From: Candidatus Azambacteria bacterium
GTDB lineage: Bacteria > Patescibacteriota > Minisyncoccia > GWC2-36-17 > WO2-46-25
DNA: 64,000 nt
NCBI GenBank assembly: GCA_016234725.1
Contig: JACRAK010000012.1
Span: 10,619 to 74,618, forward strand
Direction of reading: 5' to 3'
Position numbers and translations under genes: made by a program. Of the stretch, positions 14,603 through 49,476 are shown in pieces. Position 1 is the first letter of the stretch, and each line of letters begins with the position of its first letter. The notes below the pieces were generated by a model, which saw nothing but the letters and a program-made list of their open reading frames with translations, was not told the DNA's origin and did no database searches.

Positions 14603-14632
14603 AAAAAGACGGCATTTGATTGCCGTCTTTTT
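14603..14632. terminator. Bidirectional intrinsic terminator (aaaaagacggca-tttgat-tgccgtcttttt)
   Basis: Perfect GC-rich stem flanked by A-run and T-run; near-identical copy at 21817-21848. Confidence 0.6.
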
Positions 14633-14639
14633 AAATTAT

Positions 14640-15302
14640 CTACTGATTCGCAAAATTTCTCTCTGCTTCAGATAATGAGATCCCAAAGATTTCTTTGAAT
14701 TTTTCTTCAAACTGAGGATGGTAGTAGTTTTTATTCAAGGATCGTAATAATCCCAATATTTTTTCAAAGGAATATTTTTCTATCAAAAAGGAGGTAAACA
14801 AGCATGCATGTTTATATGCATCATGGTTAGCATATACGCTCCATCCATACTCAGTGGAGAGCTTCGCGACATAATTCTCTTCTATATAATATCCCCGCTG
14901 ATTTTTATATTGATCGACTTGGCCCGCTACATACATCGCTATCCCTTCATTCAGCCATACGGGAATGGCCGCCGCGCCCACGATCTTCTTTGCGAACGCA
15001 TGCCACAGCTCATGCTTTAAGATTTTTATAAAATCACTTTTTGGGTGAGAGCTTTGCTTTTCAAAAGAGTTCGGATGAAGAATGTCTATAGAACCATCCG
15101 CAGATGTGTTTCCCACATGCCATGGTGGTGTTTTCATCCCGATCCGCTTCTCATAGTTAGCTCTGGATTCGTGGAGTCGGATAACGATAGGGAAGTCGGC
15201 GGGTATGTGCAGCTGACCCCCGAGATCAGCAAGCGCCTTTTCAACTTCTTTCTTTATTACATTAAGACCCCTCTTCGGTCCTTGCAGCGTGAAATTACTC
15301 AT
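14640..15302 (-). CDS. HExxH-motif putative zinc metallopeptidase (paralog family 1 of 4)
   Basis: 220 aa; HELWH … NEGIAMY (HExxH+E); same architecture as 22081, 25568, 28265. Confidence 0.4.
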   Translation of the reverse strand: MSNFTLQGPKRGLNVIKKEVEKALADLGGQLHIPADFPIVIRLHESRANYEKRIGMKTPPWHVGNTSADGSIDILHPNSFEKQSSHPKSDFIKILKHELWHAFAKKIVGAAAIPVWLNEGIAMYVAGQVDQYKNQRGYYIEENYVAKLSTEYGWSVYANHDAYKHACLFTSFLIEKYSFEKILGLLRSLNKNYYHPQFEEKFKEIFGISLSEAERNFANQ

Positions 15303-15553
15303 AAGAGGATTATATCACAAAGAAGCAGTCTTATTTCACCGGCATCAGCCATTTTTTTGTGCAAAATTAATTCAATGTATAAATTAACTGAATAACCCAT
15401 GTTTTTTGGTGTTAAAAGAGCTTAAAAGACATTAAGATATTAAAATTGACAAAAACAAATCTTAGTATATTATTCAACATAGTTAAGGGTAAGGAGAAAG
15501 ATCTTTAAAAACATAGATTGCAAAATTTAACCCGAGAAAAGGAGGTGGCCGAA

Positions 15554-15793
15554 ATGATCACAAACATGGATGAAAAACTGAAGTTTTATTGTCCTCGGTG
15601 CAAAGTAATGTTTTCTTGTGCTGGTGACGATGGCGTGGCAAAATGTCCAATTTGCAAGGTCAAAAGAAGTGATGGTTTTAATCAAATCGGACACAACTGC
15701 TTTCAGTGCGTAGCCTGCAAATGCCGATTTGAAAACATTTCAAAAGAAGGACTAAAATGTCCTAACGGATGTGTAAAGGAGGATGTGGAATGA
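15554..15793 (+). CDS. Small double zinc-ribbon protein, translationally coupled to trpS
   Basis: 79 aa from MITNMDEK; strong SD aaggagg; CPRC…CPIC…CFQCVAC…CPNGC; stop overlaps trpS ATG. Confidence 0.4.
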   Translation: MITNMDEKLKFYCPRCKVMFSCAGDDGVAKCPICKVKRSDGFNQIGHNCFQCVACKCRFENISKEGLKCPNGCVKEDVE

Positions 15794-16791
15794 AAAGCAA
15801 GAGTGTTATTCTGTCAGGAATACGAGCAACAGGGAGGCTTCATTTCGGAAATTTTCTTGGCGCGGTTCAAAATTTTGTTAAGTTTCAGCAACCAGGGAAT
15901 ACCTGTCTTTATTTTATCGCTGACTGGCATACCCTCACGACTTTTCAAGACCCTAAAGAGCTTCGAGGAAATTTGATAGAGATAGTGAAAGATTACATTG
16001 CTGCCGGCCTTGATCCCGAGCGGTCCATTATTTACGCTCAATCAAGTGTTCCGGAGATTGCGGAGCTCTGTCTCTATCTAAGCATGATCCAGCCTTTTGG
16101 TGATCTGGTGAGGATTCCGACGTTTAAGGATCTTATTCGAAAGAATCCAAACAATGTGAATCTGGGAATTGTGACGTATCCGGTTCTTATGGCAGCCGAT
16201 ATCCTTGGTCCAAGAGCAACGCTAGTTCCTGTTGGCGAAGATCAGATTCCAAATATTGAACTTGCGCAATCATTAGCGCGCAAGTTCAATAATCATTTCG
16301 GCGATACATTTGTTATCCCCGATATGATGATGCAGATGATTCGGGTTCCCGGTCTAGATGGGAATAAGATGGGAAAATCGGAGGCAGATAATGCAATCGA
16401 TGTAAATTCCCCAATTTCTGTAATTCGCGAGCGATACCTAAAAAAAGGAATAACAGACATTGAACGTAAGCGAGCAAAAGATCCCGGGGACCCCTATAAT
16501 CGTTGCCAGTCCGTGTATCCTTTGCACGAGCTTATCACGATTGGTGAGGCCGAAACGCGAACCATAGCAACCGCATGCCTAGAAGCCAGGATTGGATGTG
16601 TGGAATGCAAGCATCGTCTTGTGGATGGCATTGATAAGATATTGGGGCCATTCCAAGAGGCGCGCGCTAAGCTCGCTGACAAAAACGACCAAATCAGGGA
16701 AATTCTTCACGAGGGAGGGAAAAAGGCGAGAGTGCTGGTCCGTGAAACAACAATGGTCGTGCGCGAAAAGATGGGTATTGTCATCCATTAA
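15790..16791 (+). CDS. trpS: Tryptophan--tRNA ligase
   Basis: Class I motifs (GRLHFGN HIGH-variant, KMGKS); SD aaggagg before ATG 15790. Confidence 0.85.
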   Translation: MKSKSVILSGIRATGRLHFGNFLGAVQNFVKFQQPGNTCLYFIADWHTLTTFQDPKELRGNLIEIVKDYIAAGLDPERSIIYAQSSVPEIAELCLYLSMIQPFGDLVRIPTFKDLIRKNPNNVNLGIVTYPVLMAADILGPRATLVPVGEDQIPNIELAQSLARKFNNHFGDTFVIPDMMMQMIRVPGLDGNKMGKSEADNAIDVNSPISVIRERYLKKGITDIERKRAKDPGDPYNRCQSVYPLHELITIGEAETRTIATACLEARIGCVECKHRLVDGIDKILGPFQEARAKLADKNDQIREILHEGGKKARVLVRETTMVVREKMGIVIH

Positions 16792-16817
16792 CTCTAAAGA
16801 AGGAGGAGGGAAATGTT

Positions 16818-17942
16818 ATGGAACAGTTCTTGAGCTTAAAAGAACTGGGGAGCCGACTCTATAAGGTCGACATGCTTGTTGTTGCTCTCTTGAAGCGCCG
16901 AATGGATTTGGCGCTTCAAGTAGGGGAGTTCAAGGTAAGGAATGGGCAAAAGATTTTTCGTGCAAGCGTCGAATCAAAACGATTGGCTCAGGTGAAAGCT
17001 GAGGCGCGCAAGCGCAATCTAAGCCAGCACTTTGCAGCATCCATTCTGTATCAAGCTATAAATGAATCATGTAAGCAGCAAATGATTCAGTTGCAAAATA
17101 CAAATGCTCGGCGGCACAAAAAGGCAAAAACCGAAAAAGAGAGCTACCGCCTCTTGAAAAAAAACCTTCTGCTTCTTACGAGGCGATGGGCTGATTCATA
17201 TGATGATCAGTATGACAAAGCTTTTTTTGCGACGCACGCTTATCTTGATTTCGAGGATCAGATCCTCGAGCAAGAGATAAGGCAAATTGCTGATCGGGGA
17301 ATTGCTTTGGACTTGGGGTGTGCAACAGGAAGGTTGTCTACGAAGCTTTCCCCGTCATTCAGATGGGTGTATGGATACGATCTGAGTCCTCATATGCTCA
17401 TGAAGGCAAACGCAAAAGAAAAAAAAGTCCAAAATGTCAGCTTCATTGAAGCTGATTTAGAAAAAGGAATTCCTCAGTCAGACAGTTCGGTATCGTTTGT
17501 GGCAATGAATTTAGGTACGGCAAGCGATATCCGTGATATTTCCGGAGTTCTTAAGGAGGTTAAGCGCGTCCTTGTCTCTGGCGGAAGGTTTTTCTTCTCG
17601 TTTTACAATCGAGAAGCGTTGTTGTATCAATGGGATTTCATCCCATGGCCAGTTGGACTTGCTGCTGAAATCAACATCCACAAACATTGCCTAGACGTTC
17701 ATTTAGGCGCAAAGGTTTTGTCAGTATATGCTCGTCCGTACACCTCGAAGGAGGCGAGGAATCTTTTCCCTAAAGGAATGAAGCTTTCGAAGGTTCTTAC
17801 TCACCCAACGATCAGCTCCATTCTTCCTAATAATCTGTTTGAAGGAAAAGCATCCATTCAAAAGTCTGTGGCTGATATCGATCGACACCTTGCAAAGGCT
17901 CACGATGGCGCATATATCATCGTAACAGGTAAAAAAATGTAG
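16818..17942 (+). CDS. Fusion protein: N-terminal AroQ-type chorismate mutase-like domain + class I SAM-dependent methyltransferase
   Basis: N-term RLYKVDMLVVALLKRRMDLALQVGEFK (AroQ pattern R..ID..D..LL.LL..R..L..VG..K); C-term LDLGCATGR and VLVSGGRFFF methyltransferase motifs. Confidence 0.55.
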   Translation: MEQFLSLKELGSRLYKVDMLVVALLKRRMDLALQVGEFKVRNGQKIFRASVESKRLAQVKAEARKRNLSQHFAASILYQAINESCKQQMIQLQNTNARRHKKAKTEKESYRLLKKNLLLLTRRWADSYDDQYDKAFFATHAYLDFEDQILEQEIRQIADRGIALDLGCATGRLSTKLSPSFRWVYGYDLSPHMLMKANAKEKKVQNVSFIEADLEKGIPQSDSSVSFVAMNLGTASDIRDISGVLKEVKRVLVSGGRFFFSFYNREALLYQWDFIPWPVGLAAEINIHKHCLDVHLGAKVLSVYARPYTSKEARNLFPKGMKLSKVLTHPTISSILPNNLFEGKASIQKSVADIDRHLAKAHDGAYIIVTGKKM

Positions 17943-17946
17943 CTTT

Positions 17947-17977
17947 AAAGACCCCTGTATCCCGGGGGTCTTTTTTA
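17947..17977 (+). terminator. Intrinsic terminator after CM-MTase gene
   Basis: agacccc-loop-ggggtct followed by TTTTTT. Confidence 0.6.
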
Positions 17978-18007
17978 TATCTGGTGTCTTGAGGCGCTCT
18001 AAAGCTC

Positions 18008-18035
18008 TTGACAAATTTTTTTATGGTGCTAGATT
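18008..18035 (+). promoter_or_regulatory. Promoter TTGACA-16-TAGATT for the TrpD-like gene leader
   Basis: Consensus -35; about 355-nt untranslated leader follows. Confidence 0.45.
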
Positions 18036-18041
18036 TAGCTC

Positions 18042-18397
18042 AGGTCTTTTATAGTAGCAAAACCTTTGATGTGGGTCCCTCGAGTAGTCGAGGGATTGGG
18101 CTCATATCGCTCGACATGACATATGGCGAGCAAGGTGGCTTCTGCGAAAGTGGAAACCCGGATTCCTCCGTAATCATGGGATAATTGATGTCAGCCGAAA
18201 GGCACTTGAGTCAATGAGGGAAGCTTTTGCTTCCGAAAAAGGGTGGTAGCACGTAGATAAAACTCTTCGTCCCTTTGCGTAATTTTTTGCGCACAGAGAT
18301 GAGGAGTTTTTTGTTAAAACCCTCAGCATTTAAGGCGAGTTCTTTTACAAATCACGCACAAATCGTGCACAACCGTTTGACCCAAAGGGAGGGTGTT
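18042..18397 (+). promoter_or_regulatory. Long structured 5' leader with internal intrinsic terminator; weak T-box-like motif AGGGUGGUAGCACG
   Basis: AAAAAGGGUGGUAGCACG at 18231-18253 overlapping a terminator (AAAGGG…CCCUUUgcg + UUUUUU at 18283-18288) upstream of SD/ATG 18398. Confidence 0.3.
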
Positions 18398-19783
18398 ATG
18401 AAAAAAGTTTCGCGCATCATTTTGTCTGGACACAAATTGTTAAAGCAAAAAGCTCGGGAAATCTTGGCTATCGACTACGATGTATCCAAACGGGCCGTGG
18501 GCAACGAAGGCATTCTTCATTTGCTGGAAAGTACAACAGTTGGCATGCTGGATCGGAAAGTAAAGCACGGAGAAAATCTTTCGTTCGAGGAAGCATTTTG
18601 CGGAATGTGTTATGTGCTTGCAGCAACAAACGCCCATTTTTATGAAGCATATCGCGGTCTGTTTGAACGAGCCTACGGCAACACAAACTTCACGAGTGAA
18701 AAAGCGCTGGCAATAGCCTCGTCCTTTTTGAGCCTTATGGCGGCGAAAGAATCACTGAATTACCTTACAGCTGAAGAAATTGCTGGAATGGTTGCCGCCG
18801 GAATGATGGACACCGTTATTTCGCTTGATGTGCCAAGGGTCGTTGAAACCTGCGGCATGGGAGGCGACAAAGGATTTCGCCGTTCCCGCGTTGGCATTTC
18901 CAAGAAAACGATCAACGTTTCAACGCTGAGTGCTCTCGTGCTTTCTGCCATCGGACTTCCTGCCGCTAAGCACGGATCCTACGCAAATACATCCGCAGTA
19001 GGCAGCACAGAGGCCATCGAGTTATTTGGGGCAAAAACCTCAATGATATCGGAAGCAGAGGTGTTGGACGTCTTGGAAAAAGCAAACTTTTGCTTTTTTG
19101 ATGCCCACTGGTGCAAAACCATCCATGATTTATCACATCTTTTAATGATGGAAACGATCAATCATGTGATTGGGCCGATGACCCCACCTTTTAGTTCAAA
19201 AACGGAGGTGAACAAGCTCATGGGGGTGAATGAAAAAATTCACCCCAAGACAGTTGCTGAAGCGTATGCGATTCTCCATCAAAAAAGGAAGCAGAATGTT
19301 GGGGGCGTCATCATTGTGTGCGGGCTTGACGAAAAAGCTCGAGGAATTGACCCCCTGAATTTTGCTACGGTTAAGAAGCATGCAATTGTTGATGAAGTAT
19401 CTCCGTATGTTTCTGTGGTTTCCGCGACGCTTAAGGGCGAGTACCTTGGAACATGGATGCTTTCTCCGGAGGATTTTGGGGTTAGCATTGATGCAGAAAA
19501 GATTCAGATCGTTAATAAGCAGGAGGAGATCCAAGAAGCAAATATTGCAGCGTTAAGCGGCGCAAACTCCGAGCTCGCAGACTACCTTGCGGTAAATGCG
19601 GCGCTGGGATTGTACGCAGCGGAATATTTATCGCGAAACGATGCGATTACGCCGAATGGGCTTAATCATCATTACCTGCGAGAATGTTTCAGGCGTTGCC
19701 GAAAGGCAATTTCATCCGGTGCGGCAAAAAATGTTCTTGATGGATATGTGCGGGTAAGTAAAAATGTTCTTTTGTTGACATGA
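18398..19783 (+). CDS. Anthranilate phosphoribosyltransferase family protein (TrpD/TrpD2-like, glycosyltransferase family 3), N-terminally extended
   Basis: CGMGGDKGF and KHGSYANTSAVGSTEAIELFG motifs; SD aaagggaggg; 461 aa. Confidence 0.6.
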   Translation: MKKVSRIILSGHKLLKQKAREILAIDYDVSKRAVGNEGILHLLESTTVGMLDRKVKHGENLSFEEAFCGMCYVLAATNAHFYEAYRGLFERAYGNTNFTSEKALAIASSFLSLMAAKESLNYLTAEEIAGMVAAGMMDTVISLDVPRVVETCGMGGDKGFRRSRVGISKKTINVSTLSALVLSAIGLPAAKHGSYANTSAVGSTEAIELFGAKTSMISEAEVLDVLEKANFCFFDAHWCKTIHDLSHLLMMETINHVIGPMTPPFSSKTEVNKLMGVNEKIHPKTVAEAYAILHQKRKQNVGGVIIVCGLDEKARGIDPLNFATVKKHAIVDEVSPYVSVVSATLKGEYLGTWMLSPEDFGVSIDAEKIQIVNKQEEIQEANIAALSGANSELADYLAVNAALGLYAAEYLSRNDAITPNGLNHHYLRECFRRCRKAISSGAAKNVLDGYVRVSKNVLLLT

Positions 19784-19797
19784 GCAGCATTTTAATA

Positions 19798-19826
19798 AAG
19801 AGGGGGGAAAAATTCTCCCCTCTTTA
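19798..19826 (+). terminator. Intrinsic terminator (aaagagggg-ggaaaaattc-tcccctcttt)
   Basis: Perfect stem and T-run. Confidence 0.6.
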
Positions 19827-19871
19827 TTATTAGAGAAAAAGAGATATAATAAACTTATTGACATTTCATTA

Positions 19872-20690
19872 ATGGATACTAAATTTAAAAAAATATTTAA
19901 TAAGGAAAAAGGGGTCATTGTCGGAGCGATTCATTTTCCGCCACTCCTTGGTTTTTCGGAGTTTCCGGGTTTTGAGATCGCTCGTTTAAATGCGCTTAAG
20001 GACCTCGAAGCGTTCGTTCATGGTGGAGCAGATGCCATTGTTTTTGAAAATAATTATGATATCCCGCACACGGAATTTGTCGGGCCAGAGATTTGCGCAT
20101 CAATGCTTCTTTTAGGCGCAGAAATTAAAAAAGCAACGACCCTGCCTGTTGGGATAAGTGTTTTGTGGAATGATTACAAAACAGCGTTGTCTATCGCGAA
20201 AGTTTTAGACCTTCAATTTATTCGTATACCGGTTTTTGTTGATACCGTTAAAACAAGCTATGGCATCATTGAAGGAAAGCATGAAGAGATCATGGCATAC
20301 AGGAAGAACATTCAAGCGGAACGCATTGCGCTGTTTACTGATATCCATGTTAAGCATGCTGAAACCGTGTCGGCGTTTTCAATAATCGAATCCGCACAGA
20401 GGGCAATCACAAGAGGATCCGATGGGCTAATTGTGACAGGAAAGTGGACGGGCAACGCACCCACCCTTGCTGAGCTCAAGAGCATAAGGGAGGCAGTGGC
20501 AGATTTCCCCGTCATATGCGGCAGCGGAGTTGATAGCAAAAATATTCATGAATTGTTTGAATGTGCAGATGGAGCAATTGTCAGCACTTCTTTAAAAGAA
20601 GGAGTTCGCAAGCAAGGGGAGATAAATGTGAAGGGTTACGAACAGCGCATTGATGAAGAGAGGGTCAGAGAATTGGTGATAAGTATTTAA
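19872..20690 (+). CDS. BtpA/SgcQ family TIM-barrel protein
   Basis: N-terminal GVIVGAIHFPPLLGFSEFPG matches the BtpA signature. Confidence 0.5.
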   Translation: MDTKFKKIFNKEKGVIVGAIHFPPLLGFSEFPGFEIARLNALKDLEAFVHGGADAIVFENNYDIPHTEFVGPEICASMLLLGAEIKKATTLPVGISVLWNDYKTALSIAKVLDLQFIRIPVFVDTVKTSYGIIEGKHEEIMAYRKNIQAERIALFTDIHVKHAETVSAFSIIESAQRAITRGSDGLIVTGKWTGNAPTLAELKSIREAVADFPVICGSGVDSKNIHELFECADGAIVSTSLKEGVRKQGEINVKGYEQRIDEERVRELVISI

Positions 20691-20718
20691 AAACACCGGA
20701 GAGCGTCCGGTGTTTTTA
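20691..20718. terminator. Bidirectional terminator (aaaacaccgga-gagcg-tccggtgttttt)
   Basis: Perfect 9-bp stem with flanking A/T runs between convergent genes. Confidence 0.6.
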
Positions 20719-20733
20719 ATGAGCTAATTAATT

Positions 20734-21708
20734 TCACTCAAAGATTGTTATTTTTGGAGGTCGTACGAAGAACATCACTTCCTCATCCAAATTCTTCACA
20801 GTCATTCCCGATGGAGCAAGGATCACGTGCCCTGTGAGCGGTGCAAAGAGGTTGTGTTTTCCATTAGTGGCAATTTTTTGGCCAGCGATAACCTCTTCGT
20901 AGGGTTTAAATTGTTTCACTAGCGAATAAGAAGCATCGGGAAAGATGAGAGAGCTATCAACAAAGTATTCCCGATATTTCTGATCATTGGTTGTTGTTCC
21001 TCCTTCGATCATTCCAAGATTTTTCAACAAAACCTCGGTGCAGGCAATCGCTCGCGTGAATGCTTGGGGGCTTTCGTGAGATCCCGCTTCAATTCCCATT
21101 ACCGGTATCGAGCCATTTCCATAGAAAAATACAGCGGGTTTCGCTATCTGCACGTTTTCTATGTTGGTAATGATATCTGTGATTGGGAATCCGCGAATCA
21201 ATTGGGGGTGAACAGCCCCGATGTTCATAATCATTCCGTCATTTTCTTGGGTGGTGCTATGAATGTCAAAGCCGACATCAAATTGCTCCCAGATATTTTT
21301 TAGTTCTTGGACACGACGGATTTCATACCGAGAGTCATTTTTGTTGCACCTCATAACATTGTCCGGTAGGCGATTCATATTGATGTCCACGAAACGAGAC
21401 GACATCTTTTCTTCTGTGTTTTTGGCGGCTAAAAATCTTTCAGTTGCGCGAATGTTATTGAGAGAAAAAATAACCACCCCATTTTTAAGACGCTGCTCAA
21501 GTGGAAATTTTTCTCTAAAGTACTCAAGTACCGCGAGTCCGCTAGGCTCATTTCCGTGAGTGTGAATCGTTATGCCGAGCACTGGTCCCGATTTGCTCGC
21601 ACCAATTTTCCAAATCCCACCTACTCCTTGATATGAGGAATTTTTGATAAAATTAAGGTGCTTTTTTAAGTATCCTATCCCTAGGTATTTCGGTGATTTC
21701 GGCTCCAT
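20734..21708 (-). CDS. Succinylglutamate desuccinylase/aspartoacylase (AstE/AspA, M14-like) family protein
   Basis: ITIHTHGNEPSG (HGNE zinc-ligand motif). Confidence 0.5.
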   Translation of the reverse strand: MEPKSPKYLGIGYLKKHLNFIKNSSYQGVGGIWKIGASKSGPVLGITIHTHGNEPSGLAVLEYFREKFPLEQRLKNGVVIFSLNNIRATERFLAAKNTEEKMSSRFVDINMNRLPDNVMRCNKNDSRYEIRRVQELKNIWEQFDVGFDIHSTTQENDGMIMNIGAVHPQLIRGFPITDIITNIENVQIAKPAVFFYGNGSIPVMGIEAGSHESPQAFTRAIACTEVLLKNLGMIEGGTTTNDQKYREYFVDSSLIFPDASYSLVKQFKPYEEVIAGQKIATNGKHNLFAPLTGHVILAPSGMTVKNLDEEVMFFVRPPKITIFE

Positions 21709-21816
21709 TTTAACCTCCTATTTTAAATGAGCAACTAAATTCCTTATTTTTTTGAAGATATCACCTGTGTGTTTTTTTGTAAATACTCGTCAAGCATTAC
21801 ACGCGCCCAAAAAACA

Positions 21817-21848
21817 CCATATCTAGAAAAAAGACGGCATTTGATTGC
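21817..21848. terminator. Bidirectional terminator hairpin, near-copy of 14603-14632
   Basis: aaaaaagacggca-tttgat-tgccgcctttttt. Confidence 0.5.
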
Positions 21849-21871
21849 CGCCTTTTTTGCCGATGATTCTC

Positions 21872-21950
21872 TATTTCGCTGCCGTCAGTCACTTTTTGTA
21901 GCGGGGGAGTGCGCCGGAAACTATCTGCGCATATGTTTCTCGGAGGTGTT
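21872..21950. repeat. Conserved about 75-bp noncoding element, copy A
   Basis: about 88% identical to 24551-24624 (…cactttttgtagcgggggagt…ccggaaactatctg…atatgtttctcg.aggtgt.tggtc). Confidence 0.55.
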
Positions 21951-22080
21951 TGGTCATCGGACCTTCTTTTTGCTTGTTAAATACAACGCCGTCGATTTTC
22001 CCGATGCCGTTCACTTCCACCGCAGTGCCGCAAAAAACGCTTCATCGAATTTTTTATAGTAAGAAAAATAAAAACCCCGG

Positions 22081-22821
22081 CTAATGAGCCGGGGTTTTTA
22101 TTAATTCAATTACCTTATCAAGAAAGAGGGTAAAATTTTGCTTTGTTTTCTTATGCTTCTTGTATAATTGCAAGACTTTTTGTCTTATTTCTTTGTGACC
22201 ATAATAGCCGCGGTCAGGAAGATAAAGAAATTCGGAAAGATCCTCGTTTAGCAAAACTGTTAAAATTTCTTTTAGGTCCCCGACCTGTTTCTCGCCCAAT
22301 CCTTTTTCATTACAATAACCGCTATATCTTTTTAAAAATTCTATATGCATGATCTCGTGCGATGCTGTATTGGGGAAATCGCTAAATTGATTAAACATGA
22401 AGCTGTTCTTTCCAAAAGGAATTCTTTTCCCGAAGGTAAAATAAGCGCGATATTCTTTTTCAAATTCTTTAAGAGGAATATCTAGCATTTTTGAAAGACC
22501 TAAAAGGCATTCCTTGCCTGCTTCACCCCATCTTTTTTCTGCTCTTGCTGATATGTCTTTTATAATATGCGTTGCTTTGGGTGTTTTTAAGAATTTATCA
22601 AGAACCTTTTCTATTTTAGGAAGAATTTTTTCTTCGGAATCTGTTTTTTCAGCGAGTAATTCAATTTCCTGAGGAATGCCGCCCAAATCCCATTTTTTAT
22701 GCCCGCCGGCATCATACGATATATTTTTGACACATGAATCAACCCAATTTTTTAATTCCCAATCCTTATTAAATTCAAGTGTGATTTTAGGGAATAAGTT
22801 CTTTTTTGAGGCATTTTTCAT
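22081..22821 (-). CDS. HExxH-motif putative metallopeptidase (paralog, module A)
   Basis: Start set at MKNASKK; TASHEIMHIEF … ILTVLLNEDL, homologous to 28265 protein (TAMHEIMHIFF … MTVLLNLWF). Confidence 0.45.
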   Translation of the reverse strand: MKNASKKNLFPKITLEFNKDWELKNWVDSCVKNISYDAGGHKKWDLGGIPQEIELLAEKTDSEEKILPKIEKVLDKFLKTPKATHIIKDISARAEKRWGEAGKECLLGLSKMLDIPLKEFEKEYRAYFTFGKRIPFGKNSFMFNQFSDFPNTASHEIMHIEFLKRYSGYCNEKGLGEKQVGDLKEILTVLLNEDLSEFLYLPDRGYYGHKEIRQKVLQLYKKHKKTKQNFTLFLDKVIELIKTPAH

Positions 22822-22854
22822 GCGTTTAAAATACCATAAAAAGAGAAAATGCGC

Positions 22855-22890
22855 TAGCCTATTTAGGCTAGCGCATTTTGAGGCCGGAGA
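22855..22890 (-). terminator. Intrinsic terminator after peptide A (gcgctagccta-aat-aggctagcgc + U-rich)
   Basis: Perfect 10-bp stem immediately after peptide stop. Confidence 0.55.
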
Positions 22891-22894
22891 AGCG

Positions 22895-23026
22895 TTAATA
22901 ATCAGTGCAGCAGTCTCCGTCAGGACAGTCGCAGTCACTACACTGACTCGTGCAATCGAGCAAGGTCTTGCTGGCGACTTCTGATTCAGCAAGAACCAAA
23001 ACTCGATTTTTATCTGTTGTTCCCAT
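22895..23026 (-). CDS. Cys-rich RiPP precursor candidate A (43 aa, six Cys; SCIFF/ranthipeptide-like)
   Basis: Manual ORF MGTTDKNRVLVLAESEVASKTLLDCTSQCSDCDCPDGDCCTDY*; perfect SD aaggaggtgatc; ATG directly abuts the rSAM stop. Confidence 0.6.
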   Translation of the reverse strand: MGTTDKNRVLVLAESEVASKTLLDCTSQCSDCDCPDGDCCTDY

Positions 23027-24115
23027 TTAGATCACCTCCTTTGTTTTGACATGCCCCCAAATTAACTGTAAGGCTTTAAGTTCAATTAATCGTGGAATCA
23101 TGATCTTAAAGAGTTTGCAGTATGGGGAAGAAGTGGTGGCTAGGTCATGAGCTCCAAAATTGATGACGGGACATCCGCCCCCACAAACAAGAGACCACTG
23201 GCAATCTTGACAGCCCTTGTAATCAAGCACATCTTTTGAATGTAGTTCGGGAAAAGTGTCTTGAGACCACGCCATTTCCAAAAAGGTTTTCTTGGTTTCA
23301 AGATTGCCTATCGGCTTTTTATCCATCCTTGCCTGGCAAACAAATACATTGCCGTTATGATCAACGGCTACGCCGGAATGGCCAAGATTGCACCCTCGTA
23401 AATGAGGCTTCCTATCGAGATGAATCTCGCACAGCTGTTGCGCGGCAACGGCGCTATGATTACGAATTGCAAGAGCGTAATAATCATAGCAATCATTAAG
23501 GGCGCTCGAAGCTTTTTTCATAAAGTCTTCGTATCCCTTAAAATCTCCTACATTATCCCGATATAGACCATAACGAAACGGAATGCTTGCATCAATCAAA
23601 AAACGGCTCAGCATAGGCACGCCGGAAATATTTCTATCCGTTATGGTTGTTAGTATCGTCGGGCGGACATCATTCCCCATGCATAAGTTCAGATTTTTGG
23701 CCACGACATCAAAAGAACCGGTGCCAGCGCCGAAGAAGCGTGTTTTGTTGTGCCACTCACCTAAACCATCTAACGACATACAGACCCTCACCGAGTTATC
23801 TTTAATCATCTTTATTAGATTAAGATCGAGCAGAGTCCCGTTTGTCAGTAAGATTAATTTAGCGCGAATACCTTTTTCTACGAATCGTTTCTGAGTCTGT
23901 TCGATCAAAAAATTAATCAACGTTTTATGCAGCGTGGGCTCTCCTCCAGCAAGACGTATTGTTACTAGGTCCAGACCGTGATGGCTTACAGTTTGTTCAA
24001 GCTTATCCAGATATAAGCTTGCTGTCTGAAAAGACATGAACTTTTTGTCCTTATTTATATAACAGTAAGGACATTTTAAATTACAGCAGTTGGCTATATG
24101 GAGCCATGTGCTCAT
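23027..24115 (-). CDS. Radical SAM/SPASM-domain peptide maturase A
   Basis: CNLKCPYC (CxxxCxxC) and C-terminal SPASM CQDCQWSLVCGGGC; start at MSTWLH (upstream TTG extension possible). Confidence 0.7.
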   Translation of the reverse strand: MSTWLHIANCCNLKCPYCYINKDKKFMSFQTASLYLDKLEQTVSHHGLDLVTIRLAGGEPTLHKTLINFLIEQTQKRFVEKGIRAKLILLTNGTLLDLNLIKMIKDNSVRVCMSLDGLGEWHNKTRFFGAGTGSFDVVAKNLNLCMGNDVRPTILTTITDRNISGVPMLSRFLIDASIPFRYGLYRDNVGDFKGYEDFMKKASSALNDCYDYYALAIRNHSAVAAQQLCEIHLDRKPHLRGCNLGHSGVAVDHNGNVFVCQARMDKKPIGNLETKKTFLEMAWSQDTFPELHSKDVLDYKGCQDCQWSLVCGGGCPVINFGAHDLATTSSPYCKLFKIMIPRLIELKALQLIWGHVKTKEVI

Positions 24116-24185
24116 GCCCTTAACATTGTTTTTTTCTAGACTAGGTCTAAACAGCGGAGCATCTTTTGGTTGAATAAGTCCGTTT

Positions 24186-24491
24186 TCAAGCAGAAGTTTT
24201 ATCCGTGGCAAATCTTTCTCGGTCTGAAAAAGGGACAGATTGTCTATAAAGAAGCTTAGTTCTCATGTCGAGCAGGACCACGCCTCTTTTGCTTCCAGGG
24301 ACAAGCGCATAACCATAGCCGTCTACTTCTCCTGTGTAACAATTACCCGTCTTTTTATATGCCTCTATTTCCCTCATTTTCTTTCCTCCGTAGGTTTTAT
24401 GATGTTGTAAAAGATCTTTTCGTATTTGTCTTTCTAATAACATAACAATAGCGTTTTTGTCAAATTCTTCATAAGAAGGGTTACTAATCAA
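24186..24491 (-). CDS. Hypothetical 101-aa protein upstream of rSAM A (non-ATG start)
   Basis: ORF with TTG start and no SD; possibly an accessory/RRE-like protein or not expressed. Confidence 0.2.
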   Translation of the reverse strand: MISNPSYEEFDKNAIVMLLERQIRKDLLQHHKTYGGKKMREIEAYKKTGNCYTGEVDGYGYALVPGSKRGVVLLDMRTKLLYRQSVPFSDRERFATDKTSA

Positions 24492-24502
24492 TAAAAATGA
24501 AA

Positions 24503-24529
24503 AACTCCCTTTCTAAGGAGTTTTTCTTG
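24503..24529. terminator. Bidirectional terminator hairpin (aaaaactccc-tttctaa-gggagttttt)
   Basis: Perfect stem with flanking A/T runs; followed by repeat copy B. Confidence 0.5.
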
Positions 24530-24550
24530 GTTCGCGTTTTTACTGTACAA

Positions 24551-24624
24551 CCGTCAACCACTTTTTGTAGCGGGGGAGTTTGCCGGAAACTATCTGGGTA
24601 TATGTTTCTCGCAGGTGTCTGGTC
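24551..24624. repeat. Conserved about 75-bp noncoding element, copy B
   Basis: see 21872-21950. Confidence 0.55.
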
Positions 24625-24686
24625 GTGGATCGGTAAGCATTGTAAATAAAAGACCTTTTGTGTAGGATACAAGCGAAAGGAAAACC

Positions 24687-25400
24687 ATGATCCCACGACT
24701 TGTCCAGCAAATCACCTATTGGCCGATATACCTCTTTTTTAAAGTGTTTTTTTGTTTTCGCGTGGAAGGACAGGAGAATCTGAAAGGACTGGAAGACAAG
24801 CCGGTTATTTTTGCGTCAAACCATGCAAGCTTTCTCGATGGTCCCATGTGTGCAGTGGCGATGCCGCGGGAAGGAATCGTACCAAAAAAGTTTTTTGCCA
24901 TGCGGTTTCTTGTCGCAAAAGAAGCGTTCGCGTTGGTAAAAAACGTCGTTCCGTTTCCCATATCTATAATCTTTGCGATCTATGTGCGTATGAATGGGGG
25001 CGTTCCCGTGGTGAGAGGCATGAACAATATTCAAAAAAATCTTGAGGAAGCAGTGAGGATACTTAGCAAGGGAACAAAAATGTGGATTTTCCCGGAAGGG
25101 AAACTGTCAAAAGACGGAACGCTTCAAAAAGGGAAGCGGGGCGTTGCCTATTTGCATCAAGCAACTAGCGCGGCTATTGTGCCGGTAGGGCTTATCGGCA
25201 CGTGTCGCATGCCTTCACAATTTTTTCGTTTCCAGCGTCCGTGCGTGACGGTGCGCATTGGCTTGCCAATGCATATTCCCGAAGGCGTTTCCTTGGAAGA
25301 GGGGACGGACATGATAATGAAGGAAATAGGACTGCTTCTTAGTGGCATGGCCACTTCATTGACCACGGCACGCGTAGAAAAAGCGCCATCAGCGATTTAA
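24687..25400 (+). CDS. plsC: 1-acyl-sn-glycerol-3-phosphate acyltransferase (PlsC family)
   Basis: NHASFLDG (HX4D) and FPEG motifs; putative promoter TTGTAA-17-TAGGAT at 24638-24666. Confidence 0.7.
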   Translation: MIPRLVQQITYWPIYLFFKVFFCFRVEGQENLKGLEDKPVIFASNHASFLDGPMCAVAMPREGIVPKKFFAMRFLVAKEAFALVKNVVPFPISIIFAIYVRMNGGVPVVRGMNNIQKNLEEAVRILSKGTKMWIFPEGKLSKDGTLQKGKRGVAYLHQATSAAIVPVGLIGTCRMPSQFFRFQRPCVTVRIGLPMHIPEGVSLEEGTDMIMKEIGLLLSGMATSLTTARVEKAPSAI

Positions 25401-25419
25401 ATTAGAAAATAAAAAGGCG

Positions 25420-25455
25420 GCGTAGGCGATAATTGAATCGCCGCCTTTTTATTTT
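25420..25455. terminator. Bidirectional terminator (aaaaaggcggcg…cgccgccttttt)
   Basis: GC stem with A/T flanks after plsC. Confidence 0.55.
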
Positions 25456-25465
25456 AGAATAACTC

Positions 25466-25561
25466 CACCCTCTTTTGTTTTTTGCCGACAGGATCAGAAA
25501 AACCGGGCGTGGCGGAAGTTATGGCGGAAAGCTTTGAAAAATAAAGGTTTTTTGGTATCAT
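25466..25561 (+). promoter_or_regulatory. Conserved regulatory element copy 1 (GGCGGAA-N5-GGCGGAA direct repeat + TTGAAA-N17-TATCAT promoter)
   Basis: Shares the core (a)tc(t/a)gaaaaaccgggcgtggcggaagttatggcggaaa(a/g)ctttgaaaaataaa with copies 2 and 3. Confidence 0.6.
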
Positions 25562-25567
25562 GAAAAC

Positions 25568-26587
25568 ATGAAGCTACGATTTATAACATCAAAAATAGAG
25601 AATCAATTCTTCTTTATCGCGAATCTTTCTGAATGGCATTTTTCATGTCGATTAGATTATAACCAGGCGTGGATCGAGGAAACAGGAGCATTGAGCAATG
25701 AAGAGAAAAGGAAGCTCAAAGTCTTCGCAAGTATCTTGCAGAAACATGGATTTACTTACGATAAGAATGGAAAAACAAAATACATCGGTAAATATTTTTA
25801 TTGTTATTCGGAGGAAAAAGCATGGGAAGAATTGGGAAAAAATATTACCAAAAAAGAGGCCCTAAGAATAAAAAATGTTTTTAAGATTTTTGAACCACGA
25901 TTTGAAAAAACATGGAACCCGCAAGAGCTCGCGGCAAGAGTAAAAACAATACAAAGTTTTACAAAAGAAAAAAGATGGAAGGAGCTCGTGCAGCGCGTAA
26001 ATATATTATTTGGGGGGCCTGCCATAACAAAAAAGATTTTTATTGTTGTCTTGATTTCTCCTCTGGCAGGAGAAGGAGTGACGGCTGCCGGTAGCGCAAA
26101 TAACGGAGATCAATGCATAACATACGAGATTCCCAAATTAAAAAATGGAGGGTGGGAGCGTGATTATTCTATGGGAGTTTTAGCTCACGAGATCGCTCAC
26201 GCGTTGTTTTCTAAAAAAGGCGGCGAAAAAGAGATTGCAAAGATTATTAAAAAAGAAAATATTCCTGCGCATATAAAAGGATTCCCCACGAGCGCTGTTT
26301 CTGTGATTAACGAGGCCATTACAGAGAGCTTTATTCCCCTCGGCTACCTTGGTCAAAAATATGCTGGGAGAGACCTCGCTCCGTTATTGTTAGATAATAG
26401 CGATAAAGGATGGCTCACAGAAGAAAAGACAAAGAAAGAGAGAGGAATTAATTACCGCAATATAAGAAAATATCTTATCTGGCAATTGTATCCTCTTGCT
26501 GTTATATATGGACGACAAAGTAAATCCATCGATGCATATTTTATCAGGCAGGCAGTATTATTACTGAAAAATGCGCTCGGCAAATAA
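25568..26587 (+). CDS. HExxH-motif putative metallopeptidase (paralog, module B)
   Basis: 339 aa; GVLAHEIAHALF … VINEAITESF. Confidence 0.4.
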   Translation: MKLRFITSKIENQFFFIANLSEWHFSCRLDYNQAWIEETGALSNEEKRKLKVFASILQKHGFTYDKNGKTKYIGKYFYCYSEEKAWEELGKNITKKEALRIKNVFKIFEPRFEKTWNPQELAARVKTIQSFTKEKRWKELVQRVNILFGGPAITKKIFIVVLISPLAGEGVTAAGSANNGDQCITYEIPKLKNGGWERDYSMGVLAHEIAHALFSKKGGEKEIAKIIKKENIPAHIKGFPTSAVSVINEAITESFIPLGYLGQKYAGRDLAPLLLDNSDKGWLTEEKTKKERGINYRNIRKYLIWQLYPLAVIYGRQSKSIDAYFIRQAVLLLKNALGK

Positions 26588-26601
26588 AAAAAAGGCAACC
26601 G

Positions 26602-27681
26602 TTAGGGTGCCTGTGGTATTGCCGATGCTTTTTGGAGAAAAAGCTTGATGTAGTCGAACATCCTTTTTCTTGTCTCGCAAAAAGGGTAGTCTCCGCCATA
26701 GTTTCCTGTCGCCCAGTAGGAGTCGGCTCTGCATCCGCCACGACAAATTGCTACATATTCGCAACGGCCGCATTTTTCAGCATTGTGATTGCTTCTTATT
26801 TCAGCGAGCGCCTTAGTTTTTGATCCCGCTAAAGCATTGATCAGTGATTGGCTGAGGATGTTACCAAGCATAAACCTCTCTTCCACCAATGAACCACAGG
26901 GAACGATGTTTCCTTCTTGATCAATGGTGATCATTTTCTTTAAGCAAGAGTTAGCAAAGGAGCACCCTCTCGGTCTCTGGCCAAGAAGCGAGCGCATCAT
27001 TGTGTCGAGCGGCTCGATTGAGGGAAAAGAGTTTTCCGTATGCGCCCAAAGATCGAATACGTCCTTATAGAAAGCAAACATTTCATCGTTTGAGGGCATT
27101 ATCGGTCTTTCTGAAAGTGGCACGCTTTTTAGAGGCAGCAAGCCAAATGAGTTCACGCCGAGAGCTTCATAGAAATGAAATATCTCTTTGGCGCGAGAAA
27201 CATTTAGTTTACTTATAACAGAAAGAACACCAAGAGGCATGCCAGTCGCTTTTATTTCTGCGCAAGTTCTTAATAGCGCACTTATATCAGAGCGGCGATG
27301 AGCTATGTATACATCTGTTGGCGCATCAAGACTAATCCCCACATGGAAATCATTCTTTTGAAGAAAATCAATCCACGAGGCATCCAGCAAGAGGCCGTTT
27401 GTTTGGATGTTGTTGTGATATACAATGCCTCTTTTTTCCGTTTCCTCCTTCTGGGCATTTATTACTTCTTGATAAAAATTTTTACCAACAAGAAGCGGTT
27501 CGCCGCCATGCCAGCAGAACTCGACACTGTCAAAGCCGATGGAGGCATTATGAATCATAACCCTGATGTTTTTTATCTCGAACTTTTTTATGTTTCTTCG
27601 AGAGGCGCGTGAGTAACAATACACGCACTGAATGTTGCAGTCAGATCCCGTGATCATGATGATCGTCATGGCTTTCTTCAT
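26602..27681 (-). CDS. Radical SAM/SPASM-domain peptide maturase B
   Basis: CNIQCVYC and SPASM CGRCEYVAICRGGC. Confidence 0.7.
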   Translation of the reverse strand: MKKAMTIIMITGSDCNIQCVYCYSRASRRNIKKFEIKNIRVMIHNASIGFDSVEFCWHGGEPLLVGKNFYQEVINAQKEETEKRGIVYHNNIQTNGLLLDASWIDFLQKNDFHVGISLDAPTDVYIAHRRSDISALLRTCAEIKATGMPLGVLSVISKLNVSRAKEIFHFYEALGVNSFGLLPLKSVPLSERPIMPSNDEMFAFYKDVFDLWAHTENSFPSIEPLDTMMRSLLGQRPRGCSFANSCLKKMITIDQEGNIVPCGSLVEERFMLGNILSQSLINALAGSKTKALAEIRSNHNAEKCGRCEYVAICRGGCRADSYWATGNYGGDYPFCETRKRMFDYIKLFLQKASAIPQAP

Positions 27682-27756
27682 AAAATTCGCTCCCGTGTTT
27701 TTTTGAATGCGGATGTGGAGGGAGGGGGTATTTACTACCCCCTCCTGTTCGAGCTA

Positions 27757-27939
27757 TTACTTGGTGCTGGCGTCGCGATAATGATCGTGCGACGGTTGAT
27801 CGACCCAGTGATCGTGTTTCATGCTCAGCGAGTCACCGTTTTTAATCTTGGCAGTCGCTTGAGTAATGATCTTTTGCACGGGTCCGGATATGCAGACGCC
27901 TGACATATCCTTAACATGACTATCGATTCCGCGTTCCAT
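27757..27939 (-). CDS. 60-aa candidate precursor peptide B (His/aromatic-rich C-terminus)
   Basis: SD aaggagggtaaat-ATG; MERGIDSHVKDMSGVCISGPVQKIITQATAKIKNGDSLSMKHDHWVDQPSHDHYRDASTK; hairpin GGAGGGGG…CCCCCTCC between it and rSAM B. Confidence 0.45.
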   Translation of the reverse strand: MERGIDSHVKDMSGVCISGPVQKIITQATAKIKNGDSLSMKHDHWVDQPSHDHYRDASTK

Positions 27940-28100
27940 ATTTACCCTCCTTTCTTTGAGTTTTCAGCCCATTAGATGGCTGAAATTGGGGTTTCCATTA
28001 ACGAAATTATTAAAGGACATAACAAGCGCATATATACGCTTTTCCCTTTATGATGTCAACGCCCTGTGTATGCCGCGCCCTGTATGACACTGTATGGCAA

Positions 28101-28238
28101 GTTTAAGAAACTACGCAACCACTCAAAACATATTTTATCACCCAACAACCCCATTGTTTTTAAAGATAATCTGAAAAACCGGGCGTGGCGGAAGTTATGG
28201 CGGAAAACTTTGAAAAATAAAATTGTTTTTGATATGAT
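28101..28238. promoter_or_regulatory. Conserved regulatory element copy 2 between divergent promoters (rSAM-B operon on - ; HExxH c on +)
   Basis: about 125 bp about 90% identical to copy 3; -35 TTGAAA 28210-28215, -10 TATGAT 28233-28238; minus-strand TTGACA-17-TATATA at about 28020-28050. Confidence 0.6.
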
Positions 28239-28264
28239 GGAGAGGGAAATTAAACAAAGAAACA

Positions 28265-28978
28265 ATGAGCACCCCGCGTGTTATATTTTCTTACAATCAG
28301 GAAAAAGATATCAAAAACATTCAAATTGGACTTGATACTGTGAGTCGCGGCAGACAACCAGATAGAGAGCTTGTACAAATTATCCAGCAATACGGCAGCG
28401 CGCCATCAGAAGAAGACATCAAGGAATATTTAATTTCTCGATGGAAGAATAAAAGGGGTGTCCCTGACCTTATCGTAAAACAACTCCAAGAATATTGGGA
28501 CACAATAGAAGAAAAATATTTTAATCATCTTGCAGATCGAATGCAGCTCACGTCCTTTCATGGAATTAAACAGCTAGGCGGTTTTTTAAGTGTGCGTTAC
28601 GGAAGCGGTTATAATACTGAACAACAATGGTTTGCGGTAAGTGTGTATAATAGCACCCTAAAGAACACATTAACGGCAATGCATGAGATCATGCATATTT
28701 TTTTTCATAAACAATGGTGGGATTTTTGCAAAAAACAAGGATTGCCCGATAACAATATATGGGATGTAAAAGAATCAATGACGGTGCTTTTAAATTTGTG
28801 GTTTAAAAATCAGGTTATTGATACTGATTGGGGATATGATGAGCACGCCGAGCTTCGCCGTTTCATTATAGATTGGTTTTTGGAAACGAGAGATTTTAAA
28901 AAAACATTGGAAAGGGCGTGTATATATATGAAAGAACACTCAGAAAAAAGCCCTGATTGGATAACCAATCAGGGCTAG
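28265..28978 (+). CDS. HExxH-motif putative metallopeptidase (paralog, module C)
   Basis: 237 aa; TAMHEIMHIFFHK … ESMTVLLNLWF. Confidence 0.45.
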   Translation: MSTPRVIFSYNQEKDIKNIQIGLDTVSRGRQPDRELVQIIQQYGSAPSEEDIKEYLISRWKNKRGVPDLIVKQLQEYWDTIEEKYFNHLADRMQLTSFHGIKQLGGFLSVRYGSGYNTEQQWFAVSVYNSTLKNTLTAMHEIMHIFFHKQWWDFCKKQGLPDNNIWDVKESMTVLLNLWFKNQVIDTDWGYDEHAELRRFIIDWFLETRDFKKTLERACIYMKEHSEKSPDWITNQG

Positions 28979-29002: not shown

Positions 29003-29155
29003 TTAGGAGCCATCGCAGCCGTCTGTGCCGCCGTGACATCCTGACTGGCATACGTTGCAGCCGCTGTTGTCACAGGTGCCACCGCTGTTGTCGCATGCGG
29101 CTAGTACGGTAGTAGCCGACGATCCTTCAATGAGCGAAGAAAAAGCGAGCTTCAT
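29003..29155 (-). CDS. Cys-rich RiPP precursor candidate C (50 aa, seven Cys)
   Basis: Manual ORF MKLAFSSLIEGSSATTVLAACDNSGGTCDNSGCNVCQSGCHGGTDGCDGS*; perfect SD aaggaggtgattg; downstream of rSAM C on same strand. Confidence 0.6.
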   Translation of the reverse strand: MKLAFSSLIEGSSATTVLAACDNSGGTCDNSGCNVCQSGCHGGTDGCDGS

Positions 29156-30646: not shown

Positions 30647-30786
30647 TTTCAAGAAACTAACGCAACCCCTCAAAACATATTTTATCACTCACCAGCCCCC
30701 TTTGTTTTTTAAAGATAATCTGAAAAACCGGGCGTGGCGGAAGTTATGGCGGAAAACTTTGAAAAATAAAGGTTTTTTGGTATGAT
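30647..30786. promoter_or_regulatory. Conserved regulatory element copy 3 between divergent promoters (rSAM-C operon on - ; MTase/HK on +)
   Basis: Same 125-bp element; -35 TTGAAA 30759-30764, -10 TATGAT 30781-30786; minus-strand TTGACA-17-TAATGT about 30600-30630. Confidence 0.6.
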
Positions 30787-31695: not shown

Positions 31696-31704
31696 ATCCG
31701 TTTT

Positions 31705-49427: not shown

Positions 49428-49476
49428 TGCCGTTGCGTATTACTGATAACTACCGGTTGTTCCGGTGGTGTATTTG

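Follow-up and report, generated by a model that had tools for sequence, protein, structure and literature searches.

Three putative RiPP modules in a row, each with its own zincin-like HExxH partner, in Candidatus Azambacteria

Three Radical SAM Peptide Modules and Four HExxH Proteins

A 64,000-nucleotide (nt) stretch from Candidatus Azambacteria, of the Patescibacteria (metagenome-assembled contig JACRAK010000012.1, positions 10,619 to 74,618; hereafter the window), contains three radical S-adenosylmethionine (rSAM) peptide modules in a row, each with its own partner protein carrying an HExxH motif. The best explanation for this region is that it comprises three tandem modules for peptides that are made by the ribosome and modified after translation (RiPPs), each consisting of a precursor (pepA, pepB, or pepC), a radical SAM/SPASM maturase (rSAM_A, rSAM_B, or rSAM_C) and a zincin-fold HExxH enzyme (P2, P3, or P4, respectively). 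The fourth HExxH protein, P1, is an ordinary MA-clan peptidase from the same recurring gene pool. Whatever reaction they may catalyze, we consider it highly probable that P2, P3, and P4 are partners devoted to the rSAM peptide modules, and we give about an even chance to the narrower proposal, in which each would be the dedicated leader peptidase of a minimal RiPP module of three genes.

Searching the 51 gene-like open reading frames (ORFs) of the window for HExxH returned four, all of them within 14.6–29 kb. The initial annotation was correct about these ORFs, with their coordinates, strands and motifs (Table 1). The deposited proteins HY839_01900 and HY839_01920 are 100% identical to P2 and P3, respectively. 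The motif is short, and the four occurrences could in principle be chance ones in unrelated proteins, since residue shuffles produced a mean of 0.9 HExxH in the window; however, four or more were reached in just 1% of the shuffles, the HExxH and a downstream Glu are invariant in every family alignment, and the predicted folds are zincin-like. Motif conservation, together with the fold results, led us to discard a chance origin, which we regard as extremely improbable.

All aligned sequences retain the HExxH: 19 for P4, 26 for P2, 20 for P3, and 4 for P1, as well as 48 in the alignment of a broad P2/P4 superfamily. For P1, residues H97, E98, H101, and E119 are invariant among the four orthologs and show the classic HExxH-x17-E (WLNEG) spacing; among the 48 diverse members of the P2/P4 superfamily, the only fully invariant positions are H140, E141, H144, E170, and N177 (P4 numbering). 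The downstream invariant Glu (E119 in P1, within WLNEG, E185 in P2, E249 in P3, and E170 in P4) lies in all cases in a predicted helix following the HExxH helix and, judging from the alignments, is the predicted third metal ligand. In P2 and P4 it belongs to the KE found upstream of TVLLN (KEILTVLLN and KESMTVLLN, respectively), and is followed by the invariant Asn. The third ligand of P2 had previously been sought in TVLLNEDL. This assignment did not hold: P4 has TVLLNLWF instead, the Glu from NEDL is conserved neither in P4 nor in the wider superfamily, and the conserved residue is that of the KE just upstream.

Conservation of the Modules

Conservation was evaluated by tblastn of the window proteins against fetched loci, which are designated here with L numbers. 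As initially annotated, three of the HExxH genes sit beside rSAM/peptide modules: P2, P3, and P4 have conserved rSAM-SPASM neighbors, and the precursors could be located as pepA, pepB, and pepC, all of them with ribosome-binding sites and with homologs at the same positions in other genomes. The three maturases contain the Pfam domains Radical_SAM and SPASM, and their best NCBIfam matches include peptide maturases as well as sulfatase and heme rSAM models, in all cases below the equivalog cut-offs. The modules are like ranthipeptide (PapB-type) and triceptide clusters in having rSAM-SPASM maturases and precursor cores rich in Cys/Asp or in aromatic-x-Asp/Asn, but differ from them in the sub-equivalog scores of the rSAM enzymes and in their distinct precursors, HExxH partners and Patescibacteria host, their chemistry being presumptive.

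An rSAM-SPASM homolog is found at no more than 800 nt from a P3 relative in 17 of the 24 loci in which each flank reaches 1.5 kb or more, and in 42 out of 51 under looser flank criteria. In most cases this homolog resembles rSAM_B, is convergent with the P3 relative and is separated from it by less than 150 nt, an association that holds down to about 25–30% identity. The top NCBIfam match of rSAM_B is the anaerobic sulfatase maturase, with additional matches to DynA, GrrM/OscB, AmcB, and YhhB. Gene pepB has a strong ribosome-binding site (AAAGGAGGG) and its deduced product has the core HDHWVDQPSHDHYRD; homologs whose C-termini are rich in [WYFH]-x-[DN] motifs (e.g., ...HDDWTWNDH, ...YHDGYGDAGYGDYSDA, and ...DWSDHDHTDWGDNWDVWSD) exist upstream of rSAM_B orthologs in numerous loci, among them L011 (45% identity) and L012. 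These C-termini fit the aromatic-X-X motif of the three-residue cyclophane peptides, or triceptides (PMC12912966). Of 32 distinct regions upstream of the rSAM genes linked to P3 relatives, 15 contain a short ORF in which two or more [WYFH]-x-[DN] motifs fall within the 25 C-terminal residues, vs. 4.6% of background windows.

The core of pepC is CDNSGGTCDNSGCNVCQSGCHGGTDGCDGS, and its ribosome-binding site is AAGGAGG. The layout P4/pepC/rSAM_C is repeated in L107, with a near-identical pepC, and rSAM_C orthologs adjoin genes of the P2/P4 superfamily in this and four other loci (L009, L021, L023, and L070); in these other four, Cys/Asp-rich peptides related to pepC come after the rSAM_C-like gene. 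For instance, L009 (5488-8738) contains an rSAM_C ortholog, two Cys/Asp-rich peptides and then two P2/P4-type HExxH genes, while L070 (3679-10299) stacks an rSAM_C-like gene followed by P2-like, P3-like, and P4-like genes. Likewise, L105 combines a P4 ortholog, a P3-family gene and a convergent rSAM gene with a Cys/Asp/Gly-rich peptide, and P4-like genes are accompanied by modules in L001, L105, L107, and L112. The C-terminal extension of rSAM_C looks like a candidate peptide-recognition element, either a RiPP recognition element (RRE) or PqqD-like.

In module A, P2 comes after rSAM_A and pepA on the same strand, and this order is maintained in L015 and L017. The best NCBIfam match of rSAM_A is the PapB ranthipeptide maturase (E 2.4e-41), and its orthologs (48–67% identity) adjoin P2 orthologs in L005 and L015–L017. 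The ATG of pepA, preceded by AAAGGAGG, abuts the stop codon of rSAM_A; the deduced peptide ends in ...CTSQCSDCDCPDGDCCTDY, and homologs are found at the equivalent place in L015, L016/L005, and L017 (e.g., ...CECSDCPCPDGDCCTDY). Gene rSAM_A is split in the window by a frameshift around 24270-24290, whereas the orthologs from L005/L016, L015, and L017 are in frame; residues 41–79 of the 101-amino acid (aa) fragment ORF match the in-frame N-terminus of these orthologs. This frameshift could be an assembly error or denote a pseudogene. We suspect that the N-terminal region of rSAM_A contains a candidate peptide-recognition (RRE-like) domain.

P1 has no adjacent rSAM gene in the window. Nevertheless, P1 orthologs or P1-like proteins adjoin rSAM_C-like genes in L015, L016, and L031, and an island in L112 combines P1-like and P4-like genes with an rSAM gene and with genes for a methyltransferase, an acyltransferase, a transglutaminase-core protein and a histidine kinase. 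The genes, their conservation, the zincin-like fold (see below) and the conserved triads are what our analyses show.

Table 1. Location of the HExxH genes, the peptide modules, and associated features in the window.
Feature	Position	Strand	Description
P1	14640..15302	-	220 aa; HELWH ... WLNEGIAMY; Peptidase_MA_2, gluzincin type
P2	22081..22821	-	246 aa, ATG start; HEIMH ... KEILTVLLN ... GYxxHxxxR; paralog of P4
pepA	22895..23026	-	43-aa precursor peptide MGTTDKNRVLVLAESEVASKTLLDCTSQCSDCDCPDGDCCTDY; Cys/Asp-rich
rSAM_A	23027..24211	-	Radical SAM/SPASM maturase, PapB-like
Fragment of rSAM_A	24186..24377	-	Out-of-frame N-terminal fragment; matches ortholog N-termini
Repeat D1 copy 1 + promoter	25481..25561	+	Directly upstream of P3
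P3	25568..26587	+	339 aa; HEIAH ... INEAITESF; separate family
rSAM_B	26602..27681	-	Radical SAM/SPASM maturase; resembles anSME, DynA and cyclophane-forming enzymes
pepB	27757..27939	-	60-aa precursor peptide ...PVQKIITQATAKIKNGDSLSMKHDHWVDQPSHDHYRDASTK; directly upstream of rSAM_B
Repeat D1 copy 2 + promoter	28157..28238	+	Upstream of P4
P4	28265..28978	+	237 aa; HEIMH ... KESMTVLLN ... GYDEHAELR; paralog of P2
pepC	29003..29155	-	50-aa precursor peptide MKLAFSSLIEGSSATTVLAACDNSGGTCDNSGCNVCQSGCHGGTDGCDGS; Cys/Gly/Asp-rich; just downstream of rSAM_C, convergent with P4
rSAM_C	29227..30534	-	Radical SAM/SPASM maturase resembling GeoRSP and NirJ2; C-terminal extension
Repeat D1 copy 3 + promoter	30706..30786	+	Upstream of the methyltransferase/seven-transmembrane (7TM) histidine kinase operon
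Methyltransferase	30823-31695	+	Operon 30823..33882
HisKA_7TM/GAF histidine kinase	31705-33882	+	Shares the repeat promoter with the methyltransferase

Sequence Families and Predicted Fold of the HExxH Proteins

The initial annotation grouped the HExxH proteins in a four-member family, with two of them clearly homologous. The homologous pair is P2 and P4, which are full-length paralogs (BLASTP E 7e-14 over the C-terminal 86 residues; profile-profile comparison with hhalign, probability 99.7%, E 1.3e-25, 214 columns). The single family, on the contrary, has to be replaced by three unrelated sequence families, P1, P2 plus P4, and P3, because comparison of profiles from different families aligns little more than the HExxH helix. 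In particular, the alignment of the P3 profile to other families is limited to the 16-residue HExxH helix, apart from a weak 75-column match to P1 over the beta-sheet and helix (40% probability), and the P1 and P2/P4 profiles align only in the HExxH helix; also, when P1 and P3 were each compared by BLASTP with the other HExxH proteins, nothing beyond the HExxH pentapeptide aligned. The three families are united at the fold level only.

P1 belongs to the Pfam family Peptidase_MA_2 (PF13485; E 1.2e-9, 38.7 bits for a cut-off of 32.4). The other two families, P2/P4 and P3, were previously undescribed and are included in neither Pfam nor NCBIfam; they are uncatalogued zincin-fold families within a known type of system, the accessory HExxH enzymes of rSAM RiPP clusters. 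A profile search of 1.84 billion proteins (E ≤ 1e-3) retrieved 689 cluster representatives of the P2/P4 superfamily, nearly all of them single-domain proteins of about 220–240 aa, and P3 relatives occur in at least 80 metagenome loci. The named hosts of these relatives are mostly Patescibacteria (Azambacteria, Parcubacteria, Saccharibacteria, Paceibacterota, Wolfebacteria, and Jorgensenbacteria), with two metagenome-assembled records labeled Bacteroidota and Marinimicrobia. In the literature on Patescibacteria, searches for these HExxH families retrieved nothing beyond general surveys of biosynthetic gene clusters.

From the family alignments, AlphaFold produced confident models of P4 and P3 (predicted local distance difference test, pLDDT, of 92.5 and 87.8, respectively), and in both of them a small beta-sheet is followed by a long HExxH helix and then by a helix with the invariant Glu (P4 E170, P3 E249). 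After the top ones, the fold matches of the models include M9 collagenases, M61, M30, and thermolysin, and the P4 model also matches small zincins, such as IrrE, YbeY, and Wss1. The predicted structures are thus zincin-like and, together with the inclusion of P1 in Peptidase_MA_2, they agree with the zincin-like architecture anticipated in the initial annotation. A comparison of the P3 profile with PDB sequences yielded one marginal match, to a "substrate import-associated zinc metallohydrolase" (E 0.0097), and the N-E-A-I-T-E in the Glu helix of P3 resembles NEAISD, the Glu-helix signature of thermolysin.

The arrangement of beta-sheet, HExxH helix and invariant-Glu helix is the same as in the clan MA gluzincins (M1 aminopeptidases, thermolysin M4, and Peptidase_MA_2). 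Nevertheless, whereas P1 is a true Peptidase_MA_2 member, P2, P3, and P4 match no curated peptidase model, and their spacing between the HExxH and the Glu is of 25 residues in P2/P4 and 37 in P3, vs. ~18–19 in M1 and M4. They also differ in being small (237–339 aa), single-domain and apparently cytoplasmic, in an invariant Asn seven residues past the Glu in P2/P4, and in a strictly conserved N-terminal motif, NLSEWHF, in P3. Inspection by eye of the N-termini of P1–P4 revealed no evident signal peptide or membrane segment.

Possible Roles of the HExxH Partners

In the mechanism that we propose, the rSAM enzyme would cross-link the C-terminal core of its precursor, probably through thioether links in the Cys/Asp-rich pepA and pepC, and through aromatic-to-C-beta cyclophane-type links at the [W/Y/H]-x-[D/N] motifs in pepB. 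In the HExxH partner, a metal would be bound by both His of the motif and by the invariant Glu (P2 E185, P3 E249, or P4 E170), and the partner, with the Glu from HExxH as the general base, would cut off the leader peptide. In this mechanism we infer which metal is used, how the core is cross-linked and that the partner is proteolytic; the role is suggested by the gluzincin-type metal site, the apparent cytoplasmic location, the lack of any other protease gene within the three triads themselves (an AstE/AspA-type gene is, however, located downstream of P2; see below), and the precedent of YydH/LiaK (NF058609). As its NCBIfam name indicates, YydH/LiaK is the HExxH maturation metalloprotease for an rSAM-modified peptide, from the small operon yydFGHIJ. 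As with P2–P4, it is an HExxH protein beside an rSAM peptide pathway, but YydH is presumably membrane-associated whereas P2–P4 look soluble. Model NF058609 did not match any of the window proteins and matched only one of the 48 superfamily members, weakly (E 0.0012). As for a role as immunity proteins, also proposed in the initial annotation, we found nothing in its favor. A search for exporter or immunity genes in 34.9–47.2 kb retrieved only a sugar aminotransferase, NUDIX, kinase and housekeeping genes, and a lone ABC ATPase at 46.5 kb.

A number of observations weigh against leader peptidases. P2, P3, and P4 did not match any Pfam or NCBIfam model, including those for curated peptidases, and neither did 48 diverse P2/P4 relatives and 20 P3 relatives show a Pfam/NCBIfam peptidase match above noise; similarly, a Foldseek comparison of the P3 model to the PDB was uninformative (best E 2.3), and hmmsearch of the family profiles against PDB sequences found nothing for P2 and P4. 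The genetic organization also contributes: P3 and P4 are convergent with their own rSAM genes, in separate operons, and a terminator-like hairpin (22879-22846) follows pepA, ahead of P2. Moreover, module A may be inactive, because rSAM_A is frameshifted in the window. Among other loci, the P4 orthologs from L003 and L109 have no rSAM gene within the examined flanks, with that from L004 cut by the contig end, and the modules from L001 and L112 also carry a transglutaminase-core gene, which is a possible alternative protease.

Alternatively, P3, and possibly P2 and P4, might be non-proteolytic tailoring enzymes like the alpha-ketoglutarate/Fe(II) HExxH beta-hydroxylases (ChlH, BpmH, PflC, and PesO), in which case the HExxH metal site would serve to hydroxylate the core cross-linked by the rSAM enzyme, at Asp, His or further residues. 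The initial annotation did not consider this alternative. We view such a hydroxylase activity as possible, but unlikely. Characterized enzymes of this type have a zincin-like fold and originally carried the annotation of metallopeptidases; they are typically encoded next to, or fused with, rSAM enzymes that form cyclophanes, and their targets in the cyclophane peptide are His and Asp, which they hydroxylate (PMC12636437, PMC13060819). The existence beside rSAM maturases of zincin-fold HExxH oxygenases that are not proteases (PMC12636437) is another point against leader peptidases. A hydroxylase-like function would apply particularly to P3, whose context resembles that of ChlH: the pepB cores are rich in His/Asp and are found with a cyclophane-type rSAM, P3 is the only one of the three partners with an adjacent rSAM_B-like gene and pepB-type cores, and it has 339 aa, approximately as many as the ChlH domain chain (342 aa). 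Additionally, the metal site of the alpha-ketoglutarate HExxH enzymes is said (Morishita's work from 2024) to be a 2-His-1-carboxylate too; if so, the ligand set would not discriminate between both types of enzymes, which likewise detracts from the case for a peptidase.

Conversely, model TIGR04267, for the alpha-ketoglutarate HExxH family, matched none of the window proteins at E ≤ 1 and none of the 48 plus 20 family members at E ≤ 0.1, whereas the positive control, the characterized PflC (sequence from a supplement), was retrieved with E 4.2e-28 and 98.5 bits. Comparison with hhalign of PflC to the P2/P4 and P3 profiles resulted in probabilities of 0.3% and 2%, respectively. These negative results speak against membership of the window proteins in the alpha-ketoglutarate HExxH family (TIGR04267/IPR026337: ChlH, BpmH, PflC/PosC, and PesO): P2/P4 and P3 share with it the zincin-like HExxH, the rSAM neighbors and the Asp/His-rich cores, but without sequence or profile similarity. 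Published examples of this family come from Pseudomonas, Peribacillus, Streptomyces, and Chlorogloeopsis (a cyanobacterium), which are known as aerobes, while ours are from a Patescibacteria lineage. Patescibacteria are mostly anaerobic fermenters lacking the tricarboxylic acid cycle, which is unfavorable to an enzyme dependent on O2 and alpha-ketoglutarate and makes it less likely here.

It is also conceivable, if quite unlikely, that the P2/P4 superfamily and the P3 family are unrecognized, Patescibacteria-centered zincin-fold lineages of RiPP tailoring enzymes, with a chemistry other than plain removal of the leader by proteolysis. Metal-dependent oxidation of the Asp/His/Cys-rich peptides cross-linked by the rSAM enzymes might, for example, have originated independently in them, or else they might catalyze an entirely different reaction. 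With a non-proteolytic tailoring, the products might be signals read by the co-regulated 7TM histidine kinase (see below).

The HExxH proteins could, finally, be self-protection or turnover peptidases that degrade mature or misprocessed peptide, or housekeeping peptidases that are merely nearby. Their apparent cytoplasmic location, with no signal peptide seen by eye, the fact that P3 and P4 are on their own repeated promoter, shared with the kinase operon and not with the rSAM genes, and the existence of several P4 orthologs without an adjacent rSAM gene are in line with this possibility. However, the tight linkage (usually less than 150 nt), kept down to about 25–30% identity, is not expected of housekeeping genes, each HExxH family pairs with particular types of rSAM and precursor, and there are no resistance or export genes nearby; we consequently deem this explanation very unlikely. 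Dedicated leader peptidases are, then, our preferred role for P2, P3, and P4, with a small share of the probability left for some role other than those discussed here.

Repeated Promoters and Neighboring Genes

A 73-nt direct repeat, designated D1, occurs in three copies (25481-25553, 28157-28229, and 30706-30778) with 84–96% identity, and the similarity is extended by 28113-28161/30660-30708. The three best sigma-70-like matches of the region (10/12, with an extended -10) are all inside D1 repeats; that from copy 1 is TTGAAA-16-TATCAT. Additionally, each D1 copy contains, just upstream of the -35 hexamer, two TGGCGGAA half-sites ~12 nt apart that look like a putative activator site, and the repeat itself resembles a shared activator-dependent promoter. 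D1 does not belong to a known RNA family, because Rfam matched only the transfer-messenger RNA (tmRNA). The location of the putative D1 promoters ahead of P3, P4, and the kinase operon suggests that P3 and P4 are co-regulated with this operon, and not co-transcribed with the rSAM genes. Orthologs of the methyltransferase and the kinase adjoin the P4 module in L001 (39 and 46% identity, respectively) and are near P3 modules in L047, L048, L050, and L058.

The 3′ end of the HisKA_7TM gene is duplicated 4 kb downstream as an orphan fragment of 95 nt with 96% identity (33772-33866 vs. 37957-38051), and orphan kinase C-terminal fragments (34–38 aa) are present beside rSAM modules in L005 (10486-10599), L016 (8468-8581), L058, and L060. 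The tag peptide specified by the tmRNA gene (49474-49860, minus strand) is long and unusual (ANLFSKVKNAIALSFAPLSFARV).

Between modules A and B there is a gene for a PlsC-type acyltransferase (24687-25400), which is also found near modules in L111/L112, L049, L050, and L074, together with methyltransferase and transglutaminase-core genes. The recurrence of these three types of genes near the modules suggests further tailoring steps.

The AstE/AspA-type gene mentioned above (20734-21708) is separated from the downstream end of P2 by about 370 nt. It is the last in the interval between P1 and P2 (15769-21708), which also includes genes for a tryptophanyl-tRNA synthetase (TrpRS)-type enzyme, a chorismate-mutase/methyltransferase fusion, a 502-aa TrpD-like phosphoribosyltransferase and a BtpA-family protein, all in the same low-GC stretch; genes for tRNA-synt_1b proteins also adjoin modules in L005/L016, L057, and L107. 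The genes of this interval could form a pathway for an aromatic metabolite, include a TrpRS copy for resistance, or simply reflect synteny. Two other repeats occur around here: a near-identical 30-nt palindromic terminator hairpin (AAAAAGACGGCATTTGATTGCCGTCTTTTT), at 14603-14632 (just after P1) and 21828-21857 (~220 nt past P2), and a 74-nt repeat at 21882-21955 and 24551-24624.

Implications for Patescibacteria

The genomes of Patescibacteria are tiny, and few natural products are usually expected from these bacteria; in this context, the window from Candidatus Azambacteria contains three rSAM peptide modules in a row, each with its own HExxH partner, and the P2/P4 and P3 families are uncatalogued yet widespread, as indicated by the numbers of cluster representatives and metagenome loci. 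If their members are leader peptidases, the combination of precursor, rSAM, and HExxH would provide a three-gene rule for RiPP mining in uncultured episymbiotic bacteria, and the enzymes themselves could be tried as tools to remove leaders. Should they turn out to be oxygenase-like, on the other hand, zincin-fold tailoring enzymes would have a second sequence lineage.

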